DNA from: a virus
IMG/VR virus record: IMGVR_UViG_3300045988_144737
Length of the DNA: 64,000 nucleotides
Direction: 5' to 3' (one strand)
In this document: piece after piece, positions 7,406 to 39,915 of the stretch
Numbering within the stretch: the stretch's first letter is position 1
Layout: each line of letters starts with the position of its first letter
Position numbers and translations under genes: made by a program
Notes under the pieces: model-generated
What the model was told of the DNA's origin: nothing
The model's database searches: none
Seen by the model: the letters and a program-made list of their open reading frames with translations, nothing else

Positions 7406-7642
7406 TTATTTGAATTTTTTACAGCACCCACAATTAGAATTACCCGATAAACGCTTATTAATAAGTTCAAAGTCATTTTGATTAAATGGCAATATAATAA
7501 TTGGAAGGTTTTCTAATTTAATATCGCCATTTTTTATTTGTTCTAAAGATTCCTCGAACAAATGAATTATATTTTCAAAATCTTTTATCGAACTAATCTT
7601 GTTCAAGTTATAAAACGACATATTTTTATTAGTCATCGTCAT
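7406..7642 (-). CDS. Hypothetical small protein (C-terminal CGCC motif)
   Basis: ATG at 7642 preceded by GGGAGTGAAAAG. The upstream part of ORF 7406..7729 overlaps the neighbouring gene, so it was trimmed. Confidence 0.45.
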   Translation of the reverse strand: MTMTNKNMSFYNLNKISSIKDFENIIHLFEESLEQIKNGDIKLENLPIIILPFNQNDFELINKRLSGNSNCGCCKKFK

Positions 7643-12184: not shown

Positions 12185-12330
12185 GTTTAATTCCCTATTC
12201 AACGTATCCTATTTTGCTACAAAGCTACTCTAGTTTGATATAATACTCCAAGGGCGTAAATTCCCATACAACGCATGGTACACATTAGTATTATCTTTTA
12301 AGTGACTATTCTACTAATCCATATCTACTT
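12185..12330 (-). ncRNA. Candidate omegaRNA/right-end region of TnpB element 1
   Basis: Directly 3' of tnpB on the minus strand. Hairpin CCATgcgttgtATGG, motif TTACGCCCTTGGAG (12248-12259 region) shared with the 3' region of TnpB-2 (TTACGCCTGTGGAG), terminal ..AATTAAACAAGC resembles ..GGTTCAAGC of element 2. Ends are approximate. Confidence 0.4.
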
Positions 12331-13427
12331 AAATTAATACTTGCATTAAAATCTCTATCTATAATGCAACCGCAATCTTCACAAATATAAGTTCTTTCTG
12401 ATAATGATAACTTAGTTTTTATATGTCCACACTCACTGCAAGTTTTTGAAGATGGATACCACTTGTTTGCTTCAACAAATTCTATTCCATAAAACTCGCA
12501 TTTATATTTCATTTTCACTTTGAAATCATATAAACATTGTTCTGCAACAGCTTTTGACAAATGACGATTTTTCATCATTCCCTTAATATTAAGTGTTTCC
12601 ATAACAACTCTTGATGGCTTGGTTTTCACTATCTTATTCGTTGCTTGGTGAATATGATTGCTTCTTATATTTGCTAATCGCCTATGAAGTAATCTAATTT
12701 GCTTTTCGAGTTTTGCAATATTCTTAGTTTTGACATACTCCTTTCCTTTTTTATTCATATCATATTTTCTTGAACATTGTCTTTGTTTTCTCTTTAATTT
12801 TTTCTTTAGTTTTTTAACTTCTTTAGTTTTATTAATGTTTTTAAAAGTCATTCCGTTGGAACATATAGCCAAGTCTTTTATACCTATATCTATTCCAATA
12901 GATTCCCCTGTTAATTCTACATTTTTTAATTCTCTTTCTATGCCTATTGACAAGTACCAATACTTTCCGTCAAAGCTTATTCTTGGATTACTATATTTAA
13001 CATCTAAAGGAATTGAATGAGGTTTAATATTAATCCATCCAACCTTTTCTATATTTACAACATTGTCCTTAACTTTAAGTTTGACGTTATCATTATAGAA
13101 TGATGGTTTAGATTTCTTTTTGCTTTTAAATCTAGGTTTACCAGCTAACCCTTTGAAGAACCTTTTATAAGAATTACAAGCATCTTTTACAGCTTGTTTA
13201 GCTACATTATTAGATACATCATTAAGCCAAGCCAACTCACCTTTCTTTAATTGAGTTATCTCTTTTCTCAAATCTCCATCTTTTATGAATTTACCACCAT
13301 TCTTATAATTATCTTCTTGTCTTGCAAGTGTCCAATTATATATATATCTAGATGTCCCTGCTGATTGCCATAATCTTTGTTCTTGAATTTTTGTTGGATA
13401 TAATCTAACTCTTTTCGCTAGCATCAT
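12306..13427 (-). CDS. tnpB: TnpB (IS200/IS605-IS607 family RNA-guided RuvC nuclease, OrfB)
   Basis: N-terminal KRVRLYPTKIQEQ, RuvC motifs GIDIGIKDLA, VVMETLNIKGM, DRDFNASINL, and zinc ribbon CSECG..CEDCG. Confidence 0.85.
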   Translation of the reverse strand: MMLAKRVRLYPTKIQEQRLWQSAGTSRYIYNWTLARQEDNYKNGGKFIKDGDLRKEITQLKKGELAWLNDVSNNVAKQAVKDACNSYKRFFKGLAGKPRFKSKKKSKPSFYNDNVKLKVKDNVVNIEKVGWINIKPHSIPLDVKYSNPRISFDGKYWYLSIGIERELKNVELTGESIGIDIGIKDLAICSNGMTFKNINKTKEVKKLKKKLKRKQRQCSRKYDMNKKGKEYVKTKNIAKLEKQIRLLHRRLANIRSNHIHQATNKIVKTKPSRVVMETLNIKGMMKNRHLSKAVAEQCLYDFKVKMKYKCEFYGIEFVEANKWYPSSKTCSECGHIKTKLSLSERTYICEDCGCIIDRDFNASINLSRYGLVE

Positions 13428-33964: not shown

Positions 33965-35520
33965 ATGAAATCTCCAAAGTTGTATAAAGTTTTAAATTTT
34001 AATTTAAAGGAAATTATTGAAGAAAACTTTATGATAGTTGGCGATAATCAATATATCAAAAGTCATTTAAAGTATACCAGTGATAATCAAGAGTTTAGAC
34101 AAATTAGATTAATTACGAATACAAATAATAAAATGAATAAATATATTGCTTTTGTTGAATTTGATGGAGGAACAAAGGAAGAGGATTTAAAATCAATAGT
34201 TAGAAACGGTTTTAGATTTAATGACCAAGAATTTGTATTAAGTGAACGCAGTGGTTCTATGAGCAGAACTGGGAAGTTAAGTTTTGTTGATAAAACTATC
34301 GCACAAGAATTAGATAAAAGAATATCTATGGATAATAGGATTGACAAAACAGTAGTAAGCAAATTATCAGCATACAGAGGGTTGATGTTAACTGGGTGTC
34401 ATATGTTAGAAAATTATATGCCTAAGATAATTATTACCAAAGGATTAAATAGAACTATAAAAAATGTAAAAATTAAATGTTTGCATGATAAACAAGATAC
34501 ATTCAAAAATGAAGATGGAGAAATTATCGAATATACTAAAAAAGTAATAGAGGAAGAAACTAGAGATATTGAAATAGATTGTTTTGATGGAATGGGTATA
34601 GTTCATCCTTTAGTTGTTGAAGAAATGACTAAAGAGTTAGATTTGCCAAAGGATATTAATACTATGATTGTTAGAGCGTGCTATATGAAGGGTTGTATTC
34701 ATAAGGTTGATTATACAAAGTTTTTTGTTGACCATGGTGTTGAATGGATAGAAGATATTTGGGGTGTTAAACATAGCGTTTATGAACCTATGATTATTAT
34801 GGATAAGTCTATGTATAAAGGTTTTAATTATTTCAAATATTACAACGATTATAGAGATTGGGAATATTATTTATCTAAGTTAGAAGAGTATGACCATGTA
34901 TTTGGCATTGCTAAATACAATTTTAATGAAAAAGATGAGAAAATTTATACAAAGGCAAATTATCAAATATTACAAGATTTAAACATCCCATTTTCAGATT
35001 TTGAGAAGTTGGGAGATAAAACTTTGGATTATTTTCAAAAAGTCATAGATGGCAAAGAGGAATATGTAAAAACATTCTTAGGAATTTGTGGAGATAAGTA
35101 TAAACTTAGTAGTAATTATATTAAAGCCATTGCTAAAAATCCAGAGATGCTTAAGCAAGAGGGTGTAGTAAATCATGTTATAAATTTATTAAAAGGAAAT
35201 ATAAACGATGCTAAATGTGGAAAGTTATATTTAAGAGGTTGTTTTAAGTTTGCAGTTCCTGATTTGATTTTGTTTATGGAGCATATTGGTGGACTAGAGC
35301 CAAATGGTTGTTTAGGATTTCAAGAGTTTTGGACTAGAGGTAGATGTGGTTACGAAGTTGGAAAAGAATATCTCATTACACGAAATCCACATATTTGCAG
35401 CTCAGAACACGATGTAGTTACATATGTAAGAAATGAACTAATCGAAAAGTATTTAGGGCATTTGCAAAATGTTTGTATGGTGGACTGTAATAGCCCACAC
35501 ATGGCGAGATTAAATGGGAT
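33965..35520 (+). CDS. YonO/RdRP-like single-subunit RNA polymerase, exon 1
   Basis: ..YLITRNPHICSSEHDVV..VCMVDCNSPHMARLNG parallels the RdRP/YonO RNPCLHPGD...SG segment preceding DxDGD. The ORF-track tail IGQSVPLYRNI* is intron read-through. Confidence 0.7.
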
Positions 35521-36433
35521 AGGACAATCTGTCCCACTATATAGAAATATATAGTTAAAAACACAGTGAACCTAGAAATCTAGGGTGTATGATTTACGAT
35601 AAGGAATAGTAGGAAATGACTATTAGAAATCATGCTAACAGGGGAAGCATTAATTGTAATCCTGTGTTGTATTAAATTATAATCTATATTATATTAATTT
35701 AAAGGAGGTGTTGATATGTCATTTGAAATAAAAATTAACAATGAGAAGGAATGGAAAGAAGTCAATATTAATGGATTATCATATGTTATAAGTAATTATG
35801 GTGATGTTGTTACCTTATCAAATCGCTCTCATAAAATCGTTCCACATTTGAATAAGGACGGTTATCCAATAGTAACAGTTGGAAAAAATCCTAGAGTTGG
35901 AAAACCAGTTCATTTATTGGTTGCCATGTTATTTGTAGATGGATATAAAGATGGATATGAGGTAAATCACAAAGATTTTGATAGAACTAATTACCATTAT
36001 TCTAACTTAGAGTGGGTAAGCCATAAAGATAATATTAATTACTCTTATAAAAATGGTAGACACACTAAAAGAATAAATAGTTTGTATGGAAATAATAGAA
36101 AATTAAAAAAAGAGGCTTTCTTAGATATATTAAATAAACTAGAAAATGGTATGCCTTGTTGTGATATAGCAATATATTATGGCGTATCTGTTGACGTTGT
36201 TTATAACATAAAAAGCGGAAAGACTTATAAAGAATATAGATAATATAGATATAGTTTAATGTAATCAACAGACTAGCGAAAGAGTATTGTATGTTCCTAT
36301 GGGAATATACAAGAGTAATTGAGTAGGGTACATTTGGAGTGAAACTCTCTATTTGGAAGCGCTGTGAGCCTAAGTCAGTAATGATATGGCTATGATATAG
36401 TCGGATATAAATACAATATATGTGTTTATATAG
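35521..36433 (+). mobile_element. Group I intron with HNH homing-endonuclease gene, in the RNA polymerase gene
   Basis: P1 TGGGAT (35515-20) / GTCCCA (35531-36) with U.G at the splice site. P10 GGATT (36434-38) / AATCT (35526-30). R-like AATCAACAGACTAGCG, S ATGATATAGTCGG. Intron ends in G 36433. 1556+1039 nt = 865 codons in frame. Confidence 0.75.
35716..36243 (+). CDS. HNH homing endonuclease (NUMOD4-like N-terminus plus HNH_3 plus C-terminal HTH)
   Basis: WKEV..YVISNYGDVVT, GYPIVTV, VHLLVAMLF, EVNHKDFDRTNYHYSNLEWVSHKDN. AAAGGAGGTG RBS. Confidence 0.8.
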   Translation: MSFEIKINNEKEWKEVNINGLSYVISNYGDVVTLSNRSHKIVPHLNKDGYPIVTVGKNPRVGKPVHLLVAMLFVDGYKDGYEVNHKDFDRTNYHYSNLEWVSHKDNINYSYKNGRHTKRINSLYGNNRKLKKEAFLDILNKLENGMPCCDIAIYYGVSVDVVYNIKSGKTYKEYR

Positions 36434-37472
36434 GGATTTTGACGGTGATTTATTGTTCGTTTTAGACGAACCAACCATGATTAAAGGGGTTGATATGTCG
36501 ATTCCAGTAACTATGGATATTCAAGATAAAATAACTGTAGAACCAGATTATTATAATATTGATAGCATCGAAAAATTAATAATTAATAATTCTAGTAATA
36601 GAATTGGAGAATATTCTAACTACAGCAGTTGCTATCATAACAAGATGAAAAAAACAGAAAAAACAAAAAAAATACATGATGATTATATCTCTACGCTAAG
36701 TATTTTTGTTGGCAAAGAAGTTGATGCGTCAAAAACTGGGATAAGATTTAATTTACCAAAAGCAATTGCCAAGTATGCAAGACCAATTCCATACTTTATG
36801 AAGTATCGTAGTCCATATTATGCCACCTTAAGAGATTTTAATAAATACCGAAGTAATATGAACGCAATGTGTTTTAAAATAGAGAATTGGGAAAGAAAAA
36901 TAAAATACACAAGAACTTATGATAACTTTGATTATACTATTATGATAGATGAAGGTGTTGAGGATAATCAAGATGTTATGGGTAAAATAGAAAAGATTTA
37001 TTTAGAATTTGTTAACTTATCGCAAGATTTAATTATTGAACAACGTAATTTAAATACTTATGGAGACAATAGAATAAAACAAGTAAAGGATAAAAATAAT
37101 TTAACTATTAAAGAAGCCAAGGATTTGAATAGATATGAAAAAGCAAAAGAGTATATCCAAGATAATTATTTAAGTGTTAATAAAAGGTTTGCAAAAGAGT
37201 ATCAAGTTGATTGGGCTTATTATTATGAGGATTATAAAGACAAGTTGTTAAAAATTACAAGCAACAAAAAATTGATTGTAAATTGTATTGTTAAATTATG
37301 TTATGAGAAATATCCAAAAAAAAGCAAAAAGATTTTATGGGCGGTGGTTGGAGATTGGTTACCTAATAACATAGAAGCAGTCACTCATAATATACCATAT
37401 CGAGATGATAATGGTGATATTGAGATATTAGGAGAAAGATATTCATTAAAAGAAATTAAAAGCGAGGTGTAA
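36434..37472 (+). CDS. YonO/RdRP-like single-subunit RNA polymerase, exon 2
   Basis: Begins (M)DFDGDLLFVLDE, the double-psi beta-barrel metal-binding motif (compare NADFDGD of beta-prime and DLDGDLYFV of RdRPs). Confidence 0.7.
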
Positions 37473-37475
37473 GTT

Positions 37476-38105
37476 GTGACAAATGAAAGACTAAAAGTTA
37501 ACGATATATTAAATGGAGTTGACTTGAACGCTTATCATATGAGATATTATTGTACTTTACTCGTTAGGCATTATTATGGTTTGGGGATTAATGATGAGGT
37601 TGAAATTAGAAAGTTGATTTTTACTTGGGCTAACAAATATGGATTATATATAAAGCTAAGTGTCAAACATTTGATTAGAGATGTTCTTGAAAAATATGTA
37701 TCTATTGATAGTCATGATGGGGTGGTTAATATATCTAAGGATGATATAGAATATATTAAAACACAAAGCACTAAAAAATCAACAAGAAAATTAGCCTTAT
37801 TAATATTATGTTATGCTAAAGCATTTGCAAATAATGATGGTGATTTTGATGTTAATATTAGAATACTCTCTGAATGGGGAGGGTTAAATGTTAATAATGT
37901 TTATAATAGACAACTAAAAGAATTATTAGAGGTTGGTTATGTTGAAGATTTAGAAGAAATTCAAAAGTGGAAAGACTATATTCAAAAGTATACTAGAAAA
38001 CTAAGAATAAACTATAAATTAGATAACAATAATCCCGACTATATATTAAGAGACAATAATTTTATGAAATTCTATGGAGAAATTGATTGGGGAAAAAGAA
38101 AATAA
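37476..38105 (+). CDS. Hypothetical protein
   Basis: GTG start after GAGGTG, 209 aa. Confidence 0.45.
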   Translation: MTNERLKVNDILNGVDLNAYHMRYYCTLLVRHYYGLGINDEVEIRKLIFTWANKYGLYIKLSVKHLIRDVLEKYVSIDSHDGVVNISKDDIEYIKTQSTKKSTRKLALLILCYAKAFANNDGDFDVNIRILSEWGGLNVNNVYNRQLKELLEVGYVEDLEEIQKWKDYIQKYTRKLRINYKLDNNNPDYILRDNNFMKFYGEIDWGKRK

Positions 38106-38110
38106 TTTCA

Positions 38111-38147
38111 ATATACTTGATGAGCATATTTTTGCTCGTTGAGTATA
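38111..38147 (+). repeat. Imperfect hairpin, candidate left-end structure of IS200/IS605-type element 2
   Basis: ATATACTTGATGAGCA / TGCTCGTTGAGTATAT around a TATTT loop. Confidence 0.4.
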
Positions 38148-38266
38148 TTATGAATATACTATAATAAACACTCATTTTTGGAATTTATGGCTTAGGCGAT
38201 AACGCTTGCCATTTTAGTAGTGAAATGAATCACCAAAGAGAAAATATACATATAAGGTGATGAATA

Positions 38267-38323
38267 ATGGAAGTAACTCATGGGCGTGGATATGTATATT
38301 TAATGCAATGCTATATTGTTTGA
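38267..38323 (+). pseudogene. 18-codon stub resembling the N-terminus of a Y1 (IS200-type) TnpA
   Basis: MEVTHGRGYVYLMQCYIV* after AAGGTGA. Resembles the ..VVY.CKYHIVW.. start of HUH transposases. The rest is absent. Confidence 0.25.
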
Positions 38324-38347
38324 TGTGTGAAAAGCGAGGTAAAATCA

Positions 38348-39451
38348 ATGGAGAAAGCTTATAAATATAGGATTTATCCAAATAAAAAGCAAAAAGAAAT
38401 AATTGCTAAAACATTTGGTTCATGTAGATTTGTTTACAATAAATATTTAGCAAAACGCATTGAAATGTATGAAAATAATAAAGAAACATTTTCATATGTG
38501 CAATGTGCCAATGATATGAAACAACTTAAATCAAAATTAGAATGGTTGAAAGAAGTTGATTCCACTGCTCTCCAATCTTCTCTCAAAGACTTGGATATGG
38601 CTTATCAAAAGTTCTTCAAAGAACACTTTGGTTATCCTAAATTCAAATCTAAGAAAACACATAGATTTTCATATAAATCAAAATGTGTAAATAAAAATAT
38701 TCAGTATTGCGGAAAACATATTAAACTTCCAAAGTTAGGAATGGTAAAAACGAAAAACAAGTTGATACCACAAGGAAGAATACTCAATGCCACCGTTTCA
38801 CAAGAACCGAGTGGAAAATATTATGTGTCTATTTGTTGTATTGATGTTGATATTACTACATTAGAAAATACAAATAATTACATTGGATTAGATTTGGGAA
38901 TTAAAGAATTTTGCATCACAAGCGATGGAGAAATGATAGAAAATCCTAAGTATCTCAAGAAGTCATTAGATAAACTTGCAAAATTACAAAGAGAATTATC
39001 TCGAAAATCAAAAGGTAGTTCAAATCGTAATAAAGCAAGAATTAAGGTGGCAAGATTACAAGAGCATATTACTAATCAAAGAAAGGATTTTCTACATAAG
39101 TTGTCTACAAAAATAATTAGAAACAATGATATCGTGTGCATAGAAGACCTTCAAGTAAAGAATATGATTAAAAATCATAAACTTGCTCGTAGTATTGCGG
39201 ACGCATCATGGTCAGAATTTGTTAGACAATTGGAATATAAAGCAAATTGGTGTAATAGAAAAGTTATTAAAGTAGATAAATTCTTTGCAAGTTCTCAAAC
39301 TTGTAATGTATGTGGATATGTAAATAAGGGAACTAAAAATCTTAGTGTCAGAGAATGGGATTGTCCTTGTTGTCATACTCACCATGATAGAGATATAAAT
39401 GCTGCTATCAATATTTTTAATGAAGGATTAAGAATGTCGCAAGTAGCATAG
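38348..39451 (+). CDS. tnpB: TnpB (IS200/IS605 family RNA-guided RuvC nuclease, OrfB)
   Basis: [65 protein letters not shown] 38348 after GAGGT. Confidence 0.85.
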
Positions 39452-39560
39452 TAACCATAAAGCTAGGGTTGGAATAATCCGAAGTTACGCCTGTGGAGAT
39501 AGAGGTTACGAAGTCTGTGAAACAGGAATCTTGTGGCTTTAGCCATAAGAGGTTCAAGCA
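39400..39560 (+). ncRNA. Candidate omegaRNA/right-end region of TnpB element 2
   Basis: Overlaps the tnpB 3' end. TTACGCCTGTGGAG (39485-98), hairpin CTTGTGGC-TTTA-GCCATAAG (39530-49), then AGGTTCAAGC. Ends are approximate. Confidence 0.45.
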
Positions 39561-39606
39561 TTTTCCAAAATATTTTGTCAATTTGTTTGTAGAAAGGAAG
39601 GGTTGT

Positions 39607-39915
39607 ATGAAACTAAACAAAGAAGATTTTGCAAGAAGATTAGCCGAAAATCTAAACACCACAATAGGAGATAGCAAATGGATTACTGATGTATTTTTAG
39701 AAACCATTGTAGAAGCCATGGAGCAAGGGAATACTATTATGTTCTCTGGTTTTGGTAAATTTTATACAGTAGACAAATCTCCACGCAGAGGGTTAGACTT
39801 GAATAAGAATGAAGTTATTGTGCCTGGATTTAAGGCGATGTTATTTAAACAAGGCGGTAATTTAAAAGAAAGGCTAACTAACTCAATGGGTGAATTACAT
39901 GAAGAAGATGAGTAA
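39607..39915 (+). CDS. HU/IHF-family DNA-binding protein
   Basis: MKLNKEDFARRLAE..ETIVEAMEQGNTIMFSGFGKFYTVDKSPRRGLDLNKNEVIVPGFKAMLFKQG is collinear with bacterial HU. ATG 39607 after GAAAGGAAGGG. Confidence 0.8.
   Translation: MKLNKEDFARRLAENLNTTIGDSKWITDVFLETIVEAMEQGNTIMFSGFGKFYTVDKSPRRGLDLNKNEVIVPGFKAMLFKQGGNLKERLTNSMGELHEEDE

Follow-up and report, generated by a model that had tools for sequence, protein, structure and literature searches.

The 64,000-nucleotide (nt) stretch of viral DNA analyzed here (IMG/VR record IMGVR_UViG_3300045988_144737; hereafter the window) carries a 1369-nt element with a tnpB gene, which sits in the spacer between gp4 (TR-TP1 naming) and a gene for an HU/IHF-like protein (HU) and is co-oriented with both. 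Sequence comparison identifies the element as a non-autonomous IS200/IS605 derivative of the ISDra2 type, a state that is common in this family of insertion sequences (IS) (PMC10055086). The probable explanation of the locus is that TnpB, together with an omegaRNA formed from the 3' end of the element, would cut the genomes of co-infecting phages in which the element is absent; both the nuclease role and the production of omegaRNA in the phage are predictions drawn from comparison with characterized relatives. The source of the window is a ~100-kb Thomasclavelia ramosa gut phage; the surroundings of the element are 97-99% identical to the Thomasclavelia phages TR-TP1 and TR-TP2, which were isolated on T. 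ramosa YY17 (PMC12694917).

The ends of the element are fixed to the base by near-identical insertion-free phages (TR-TP1, TR-TP2, and contigs from IMG/VR and metagenomes), and BLAST breakpoints against these empty alleles place the inserted DNA at 38189-39557. The spacer between gp4 and HU measures 133 nt in the element-free TR-TP1 and TR-TP2, compared with 1501 nt in the window. Two empty IMG/VR contigs (L100, L101), whose flanks are 99.4-99.8% identical to the window, read ...TTTGGAATTTAT^GCATTTTCCAAAATATTTTG... (the caret marks the junction here and below), and the empty alleles read ...GGAATTTAT^RCATTTTCC, with TTTAT immediately before the junction. The occupied site (TTTAT, 1369 nt, GCATTTTCC) differs from the empty site (TTTAT^RCATTTTCC) by the insertion without any target-site duplication, and insertion 3' of a specific tetra- or pentanucleotide, with neither target duplication nor terminal inverted repeats, is the behavior expected of the IS200/IS605 family. 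An ambiguity of 1 nt at the junction, resulting from a G at both 38189 and 39558, is settled because sister copies have an A at +1, all relatives end in ...GGTTCAA/G, and the right end of ISDra2, which was defined biochemically, ends in ...GAATCACGCGACTTTAGTCGTGTGAGGTTCAA^ (PMC2806898). Of 36 distinct insertion sites in the family, 35 have TTTAT just before the left end (5.5% expected), and the same pentanucleotide was determined experimentally as the target-adjacent motif (TAM) of the ISGst2 nuclease TnpB2 (PMC10055086). An earlier note on this DNA had called for a comparison with insertion-free relatives to define the TAM and target; such relatives exist and define both. The interval proposed in that note (38106-39606) was too wide, taking in 83 nt of phage spacer before the element and 49 nt of HU leader after it. 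The hairpin that it took for the left end (38111-38147) belongs to the phage and is unchanged in every empty allele; an imperfect inverted repeat is present there (38110-38149; 17-nt arms, 82% complementary), and the true left end begins at 38189.

Both ends are of the ISDra2 kind, and they are unequally preserved. The conserved box of the left end (LE) recurs in 36 relatives, and the consensus palindromes of the family (LE, CTCGCCAC-TTTA-GTGGTGAG; right end (RE), CTCGTGGC-TTTA-GCCATGAG) are both ISDra2-like; for reference, the LE oligonucleotide of ISDra2 is TTGAT^GCTTGAGGGGCGCACACTCGTGACTTCAGTCATGAG (PMC2806898). The inner palindrome of the window LE (CTTGCCAT-TTTA-GTAGTGAA, 38203-38222) retains 3 Watson-Crick and 3 G-T pairs out of 8, whereas the family has a median of 7 Watson-Crick pairs and copies with an intact tnpA have 5-7. 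The RE hairpin of the window is intact (7 Watson-Crick pairs and 1 G-T pair), and a change private to the window (39547 G>A) turns a T-G pair of this RE/omegaRNA stem into T-A. The maintenance of the RE hairpin through a compensatory change while the LE hairpin decayed suggests that selection has differed at the two ends. No copy of the window LE variant was found at other sites in IMG/VR or in JGI metagenome contigs.

The short reading frame ahead of tnpB, which encodes MEVTHGRGYVYLMQCYIV followed by a stop, was proposed earlier as a vestigial tnpA, and this proposal holds, as its product matches the N-terminus of the intact 133-aa TnpA encoded by three relatives (L020, L021, L041; MEVTHGRGYVYSIQYHIVWCVKYRHK... 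/ MEVTHGRGYVYSIQYHIVW), a protein that matches Pfam Y1_Tnp at E 2.8e-43. An alignment at the DNA level shows that a TGG codon became TGA and that the rest of the gene was deleted up to the ribosome-binding site of tnpB. Of the Y1 HUH transposase gene expected in an IS200/IS605 element, only the 18-codon remnant is left. Many relatives also carry tnpA pseudogenes with differing deletions or in-frame stops, indicating that tnpA was lost repeatedly. Other irregularities were observed at or near the left ends of related copies. Two relatives (L029 and L030) share the same site and right flank (AGCACTGGAAAA) and differ in the first 6 nt of the LE (AGCACT versus CAATGT), which lies ~81 nt ahead of tnpB. 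The element of L029 opens with 8 nt, AGCACTGG, that are identical to its right flank, and this may be the footprint of an end rearrangement. In SPbeta-like relatives with a YonJ/YonG context and an 87%-identical TnpB (L011-L019), ~800 nt upstream of TTTAT (~1371-2170) contain no called gene.

The tnpB open reading frame (ORF) is intact from an ATG at 38348, with an alternative GTG start at 38327. Its product contains the Pfam domains HTH_OrfB_IS605, OrfB_IS605, and Cas12f1-like_TNB (E 3e-21 to 6e-30) and aligns end to end with the ISDra2 TnpB structures 8BF8, 8EXA, and 8H1J (E 1e-99; ~45-50% identity), in agreement with the earlier description of an intact IS605-type TnpB. The RuvC triad is kept (D191/E278/D361 of ISDra2 correspond to D182/E266/D349), as are both CxxC pairs of the zinc finger (319-322 and 339-342), so that the protein has the full TnpB layout of HTH/WED-REC, split RuvC with D-E-D, and zinc-finger TNB; the RuvC-inactive protein that would have undone the earlier proposal is not what the sequence predicts. 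The closest named TnpBs in a protein search are from Clostridioides difficile (73% identity over 78% of the query), and a scan of species-representative bacterial genomes found no relative above 87% identity and none in Thomasclavelia. The ratio of nonsynonymous to synonymous substitution rates (dN/dS) is 0.05-0.25 against 12 relatives, including comparisons among copies that all lack tnpA (e.g., 0.12-0.25 for the tnpA-less L006, L008, and L011 at dS 0.1-0.5), which suggests that tnpB is under purifying selection; these values derive from older relatives, as the copies at the same site differ by only 0-6 bases. Selection for the nuclease rather than for transposition, as suggested in the earlier note, is consistent with the loss of tnpA, the decayed LE next to a kept RE hairpin, and the low dN/dS, all of which are signs that the nuclease/RNA module has been retained while transposition functions decayed. 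However, the implied need of the phage for the nuclease was overstated, as the element is absent from all 10 of the places listed for phages with the identical upstream protein.

The region downstream of tnpB is predicted to form an omegaRNA scaffold of four helices (P1, 39466-39480; P2, 39490-39494 with 39522-39526; P3, 39499-39503 with 39514-39518; P4, 39530-39549). P4 is the RE hairpin, CTTGTGGC-TTTA-GCCATAAG, and is followed by the RE tail AGGTTCAA (39550-39557), with AGGTTCAAGC at 39550-39559; TTACGCCTGTGGAG is also present after tnpB. Like ISDra2, the scaffold ends in ...GAGGTTCAA. Amongst 42 distinct relatives, 99% of the P1 cells and 96% of the P4 cells are paired (RNAalifold, pair counts), and P2 forms 5 of 5 pairs in all 42 sequences through nine arm combinations. 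Changes on both sides of a pair occur in 108 cells, compared with 31.5 in shuffled alignments, and pairing collapses in slid controls. The same helices are obtained by folding the single sequence, and a covariance model of the omegaRNA scores 98 bits at the element and finds no further copy within the window. These compensatory base changes bear out the omegaRNA-like right end of the earlier note. Conservation stops exactly at ...GGTTCAA/G, and the 44 distinct flanks beyond this point are mutually unrelated, the arrangement expected at the sequence level of an OMEGA system in which a structured 3' RNA takes its guide from the flank.

The guide would be templated by GCATTTTCCAAAATAT, the first 16 nt after the RE, which lie 34-49 nt upstream of the HU start codon; a guide drawn from the HU leader had been foreseen in the earlier note, and the flank from 39558 onward does lie in the 5' leader of HU. 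A perfect match to this guide, preceded by TTTAT, is present in the empty alleles L100, L101, L108, L110, L113, L115, and L116, and the variant of the target in the L002 type is ACATTTTCCAATAATA. In the window itself the same target is preceded by TTCAA rather than TTTAT, so the carrier has no TAM-flanked self-target. Searches with Rfam returned no family at its gathering score within the element. A weak match of the scaffold (39451-39556) to HPnc0580, a Helicobacter pylori small RNA, was observed at 24.3 bits (gathering score 37), and the same family scored 36.9 bits in relative L036 (2603-2705) and 29.9 bits in L037 (2601-2705); HPnc0580 may itself be an IS605-type omegaRNA. Near related TnpB loci in other viral or metagenomic contigs (L060, 3068-3284; L008, 6507-6744), matches were observed to HEARO, the IscB guide RNA (75 bits, below the gathering score of 83), and, in the same set of loci, to a group I intron (40.6 bits, below the gathering score of 50).

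The distribution of the element shows that the insertion is a minority polymorphism, with few carriers and many empty alleles. The collection lists 471 blocks for contigs with the identical gp4 protein, and the 10 places shown all carry the empty allele; the identical TnpB occurs on 3 contigs and a 99% variant on 25. A second phage lineage (L002-L005) contains the element at the same base. Over 1 kb to either side, the identity of its flanks to those of the window is 88.3% and 87.3%, whereas that of the element is 99.56%. Two further contigs (L105, L107) combine flanks of the window lineage with the L002 version of the element at all six positions private to the window, so the element is essentially identical (99.6-100%) across lineages that are ~12% diverged (flanks 87-88%). 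Shared sequence replaces lineage-specific sequence at exact boundaries, with the closest markers that tell the lineages apart at -18, +1, and +12, and no co-conversion of flanking markers between the two lineages is seen. Seamless empty alleles exist in both lineages; one of them, L102, has flanks 99.8-99.9% identical to L002. Taken together, these comparisons indicate a recent transfer between lineages into the same site. An ancient insertion followed by homogenization of the interior was rejected, as the element of L105 and L107 matches the other lineage up to both ends despite their window-lineage flanks. Since a TnpB cut at +15 to +21, if repaired from the donor, should carry over donor positions +1 to +20, the lack of co-conversion speaks against break repair, and the event between lineages looks, from its junctions, more like an insertion of the transposase type than like homing. 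A transposase-type insertion fits the exact junctions, but is countered by the absence of tnpA, the decay of the LE hairpin before the transfer, and the use of one site twice, which TTTAT alone does not explain.

Variation was also observed in the target itself. Amongst ten empty alleles of the window lineage (L108-L117), position 1 of the guide target (39558) is G in 5 and A in 5, and TR-TP1 has the A. All other bases from -80 to +88 around the junction are invariant, and 78 of 2001 columns vary in the 2-kb alignment. This polymorphism could be neutral or could represent escape from the guide. A second locus shows the opposite polarity. In L106 (TnpB 98% identical) and in L006 and L007 (95%), tnpB and the RE are found without an LE at a second locus, and the RE flank of these copies, AACTTGAACAAGATTA..., matches the minus strand of the window at 7609-7594 in 16 of 16 positions, directly after an uninterrupted TTTAT (7614-7610). 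By these matches, variants of the phage carry nuclease modules whose predicted guides fit the uninterrupted sites of one another.

The position of the element directly upstream of HU bears on the expression of HU. The HU start codon lies 49 nt past the true right end, close to the ~45 nt given earlier, and of the native spacer of 132-133 nt, 83 nt now lie on the far side of the insertion from HU. No sigma-70-like promoter emerged from consensus scans of the 49 nt still adjoining HU, of the uninterrupted spacer, or of the LE before tnpB, although the sigma-70 consensus may not apply to a phage that encodes its own RNA polymerase; neither the occupied nor the empty spacer yielded anything informative when scanned for promoters and terminators. 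Expression of HU by read-through from the element, as proposed in the earlier note, is plausible. A position upstream of a co-oriented gene is the usual placement of the family: in a crude count based on ORFs, the downstream gene is co-oriented at 36 of 43 sites, and at 27 of 43 such a gene begins no more than 120 nt past the RE.

The probable explanation given above can be formulated as a sequence of steps. The element would be transcribed within a phage operon, and TnpB would bind the 3' part of its own transcript, as in ISDra2, yielding an omegaRNA that carries ~16 nt of the HU leader as its guide. The complex would cut co-resident phage genomes in which TTTAT stands directly before GCATTTTCCAAAATAT, the allele of most sister phages, while the carrier, whose TAM and target are held apart by the element, would be immune. 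A competitor without the element would, once cut, be either lost or repaired from the carrier, which would amount to a TnpA-independent 'gene drive'. HU would be transcribed through the element, or from an unrecognized promoter in the last 49 nt. Several of these steps have precedents in the literature: TnpB processes its own mRNA into omegaRNA (PMC10278001), and TnpB cutting of vacant sites drives retention of the element (PMC10055086). A review (PMC13565253) describes TnpB-driven, TnpA-independent spread shown in plasmids and the proposal of homing into co-infecting phages; within the limited literature searched, no paper showing TnpB-mediated homing between phages was found. Four observations weigh against this explanation. 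No promoter was recognized for tnpB in the sigma-70 consensus scan. The element is rare in its own lineage, with 3 contigs carrying the identical TnpB as opposed to 471 gp4 blocks, so that any drive must be weak, young, or costly. The transfer between lineages took place without co-conversion of the markers at +1, +12, and -18, and the copies at the same site (0-6 differences) are too young to show selection on this particular copy.

The exact junctions would fit a still-mobile passenger, that is, an IS moved by a TnpA provided in trans by another phage or the host, with precise excision and re-insertion 3' of TTTAT. In this scenario, which is possible though clearly the less likely one, TnpB would only restore the element after excision, and the polymorphism at the shared site would reflect transposase activity combined with a strongly favored or tolerated site. 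It would account for base-exact junctions without flank co-conversion in two lineages ~12% diverged and for the seamless empty alleles, and it is consistent with the intact 133-aa TnpA genes in relatives whose TnpB is 81-88% identical, with the 44 distinct insertion sites among viral contigs, and with the finding that ISDra2 can be excised and inserted by its TnpA without further help (PMC2806898). Nevertheless, few copies in the family have an LE inner hairpin as degraded as this one (3 Watson-Crick pairs of 8), where TnpA would bind if ISDra2 is a guide, and this degradation is common to both lineages and so predates the transfer. TTTAT should also offer hundreds of potential sites per genome, and use of the same one twice needs an extra cause. 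The species-representative bacterial genomes held no relative above 87%, and the LE variant was absent from other sites in IMG/VR and the JGI contigs. Neither break-repair homing nor random TTTAT-directed transposition predicts a transfer that is exact at the markers and to the same base. A third route would be a precise spread from phage to phage that needs no TnpA and is linked to the guide, with TnpB-omegaRNA helping to direct insertion to the guide-matched site or with a precise homing pathway of a kind not yet known. This route is regarded as a long shot; if true, the balanced +1 A/G polymorphism and the reciprocal targeting of the two sites would mark an ongoing RNA-guided arms race among phage variants.

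The youth and rarity of the insertion could also mean that the element is an inert recent hitchhiker, near-neutral or mildly harmful, whose ORF is intact merely for want of time. The 0-6 differences among copies at the same site, the scarcity of the element among phages with identical flanking genes, and the prior decay of tnpA and the LE are what such a hitchhiker would show. It is nonetheless an unlikely explanation, as the tnpA-less architecture persists under constraint in L006, L008, and L011 (dN/dS 0.12-0.25 at dS 0.1-0.5), the RE/omegaRNA stems stay paired via compensatory changes, and an element without a transposase reached the same base in two diverged lineages. The placement of the guide in the HU leader, next to an element that shares the orientation of HU and ends 49 nt before the HU start codon, would suit a domesticated regulator, either a TldR-like RNA-guided repressor acting at the HU locus, for which there are precedents in prophages (PMC10705468), or an element that supplies the HU promoter. 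Such a role is very improbable: most sister phages express HU without the element, and members of the family as a rule lie in this way ahead of genes that are unrelated to one another. A TldR-like repressor in particular was rejected, as the catalytic RuvC residues and the C-terminal zinc finger are intact, unlike those of TldR, whose guides are aimed at promoters with a TAM, and no TAM lies beside the cis target. Cutting of element-free phages by TnpB-omegaRNA is thus the explanation favored here, and the element itself is of an ordinary kind. What makes the locus valuable is the natural polymorphism, which is informative, and the unexpected exactness with which the element passed from one lineage to the other.

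Table 1. Coordinates of the element, its predicted functional parts, and associated sites in the window.
Feature	Position	Strand	Basis
TTTAT, insertion target and putative TAM; phage DNA directly 5' of the left end	38184..38188	+	Empty alleles; family sites
Left end (LE): variable 5-nt leader, outer stem, inner imperfect palindrome	38189..38266 (3' limit approximate)	+	Homologous to ISDra2 LE
Y1 (HUH) transposase tnpA remnant, 18 codons and stop, MEVTHGRGYVYLMQCYIV	38267..38323	+	Alignment with intact tnpA
tnpB, 367 aa; RNA-guided nuclease (RuvC) in the clade of ISDra2, predicted to be active	38348..39451	+	Pfam; alignment to ISDra2
Predicted omegaRNA scaffold and right end (RE)	~39432..39557	+	Covariation; fold; covariance model
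Putative guide-templating flank, first 16 nt after RE, GCATTTTCCAAAATAT, in HU 5' leader	39558..39573	+	RE boundary; empty alleles
HU/IHF-like gene, context outside the element	39607..39915	+	Pfam Bac_DNA_binding, E 5.8e-15; "DNA binding protein" annotation in TR-TP1
Empty second site: TTTAT (7614-7610) then AACTTGAACAAGATTAGTTC, in a small ORF (ATG 7641, -)	7590..7614	-	Guide match of sister-phage copy

The surroundings of the element are those of a phage, with genes for a YonO-like RNA polymerase, holin, endolysin, terminase, and portal, and other mobile DNA is present in the same window. A second TnpB gene (12306-13427, minus strand), which the earlier note called unrelated, encodes a protein 29% identical to the one described here (E 3e-37). 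It is followed by a RAGATH-18 RNA (12191-12254, minus strand; 70.8 bits, gathering score 44.9), a guide-RNA family of IS607-type TnpBs (PMC11061315), and this copy (element 1) is, by these matches, of the IS607/RAGATH-18 type. The YonO-like RNA polymerase gene is broken by a 917-nt insertion (35518-36434) into ORFs at 33965-35554 and 36420-37472, and the insertion encodes an HNH/NUMOD4 homing-endonuclease ORF (35716-36243, plus strand). The uninterrupted polymerase is a single 864-aa gene in TR-TP1, L108, L111, and others. At roughly the position of the insertion, L105, L114, and L116 carry another insert, whose ORF encodes 223 aa. Rfam identified no group I or group II intron in the 917-nt insertion of the window (35518-36434).

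Elements with TnpB and without tnpA are very common, and the reason for their persistence is still debated. The locus described here constitutes a natural test system, with a cultivable host, isolated phages that carry the empty allele (TR-TP1, TR-TP2), and occupied sisters known from metagenomes; its further merits are a predicted guide that matches the empty allele base for base and a second locus of opposite polarity. It could be used to test whether, in co-infections, the TnpB of one phage acts on another as an RNA-guided nuclease for homing or exclusion, and whether such elements need TnpA in order to spread. For phage genomics, the locus suggests that 'transposase' ORFs situated just upstream of phage genes are likely to be guide-RNA nuclease modules whose guides can be read from the flank.

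The closest characterized counterpart is ISDra2 of Deinococcus radiodurans. The two share a TnpB that is alignable from end to end with the catalytic D/E/D and zinc finger, an LE inner palindrome of the same kind, a nearly superimposable RE (GAATC, 8-bp stem, TTTA, return stem, GAGGTTCAA^), insertion 3' of a pentanucleotide without duplication, and a guide taken from the flank beyond the RE. They differ in the TAM (TTTAT in the window versus TTGAT), in the length of TnpB (367 aa versus 408 aa), in the reduction of the window tnpA to 18 codons and the degradation of its LE hairpin, and in the location of the window copy in a phage of a gut Firmicute. ISGst2 with GstTnpB2 of Geobacillus stearothermophilus (Meers et al., PMC10055086) has the same TAM, TTTAT, is mostly tnpA-less, overlaps with its omegaRNA, and was proposed to cut vacant sites to retain or spread the element; host and replicon differ, and the vacant sites are found in other phage genomes here, as opposed to the sister chromosome there. 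Group A IStrons (e.g., CdISt1 of C. difficile), which combine a group I intron with IS200/IS605, are likewise described as inserting after TTTAT, have often lost TnpA and kept TnpB, and C. difficile is also the origin of the closest named TnpBs. However, the window element is without a ribozyme, and its RE ends in TCAA rather than TCAG; an IStron was rejected for the window, as an Rfam search of 38000-39750 gave no hit to Intron_gpI even with E relaxed to 10, and the element has only 159 nt ahead of tnpB, too few to house a ribozyme.

With regard to its proposed behavior, the element resembles the IS605 plasmid gene drive (Mears et al. 2025, as summarized in review PMC13565253), in that tnpA is missing, the guide matches a co-resident empty allele, and presence/absence polymorphism is seen; 'transposon non-restorative homing' is grouped with it for comparison. 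The differences are that the replicon is a phage, that the case is known from comparison of sequences, and that the one reconstructable transfer lacks the co-conversion of flanks expected of break repair. A parallel within phages is provided by the free-standing homing endonucleases of T-even phages (SegF, SegB, mobE; marker exclusion), where a nuclease encoded by one phage targets the allele of co-infecting relatives that do not have it, and where variants aim nucleases at the empty sites of each other, as the window and L106 would do. In the T-even phages the target is recognized by protein, whereas here recognition would depend on a guide RNA and a 5-nt TAM, and self-immunity would result from the insertion itself.

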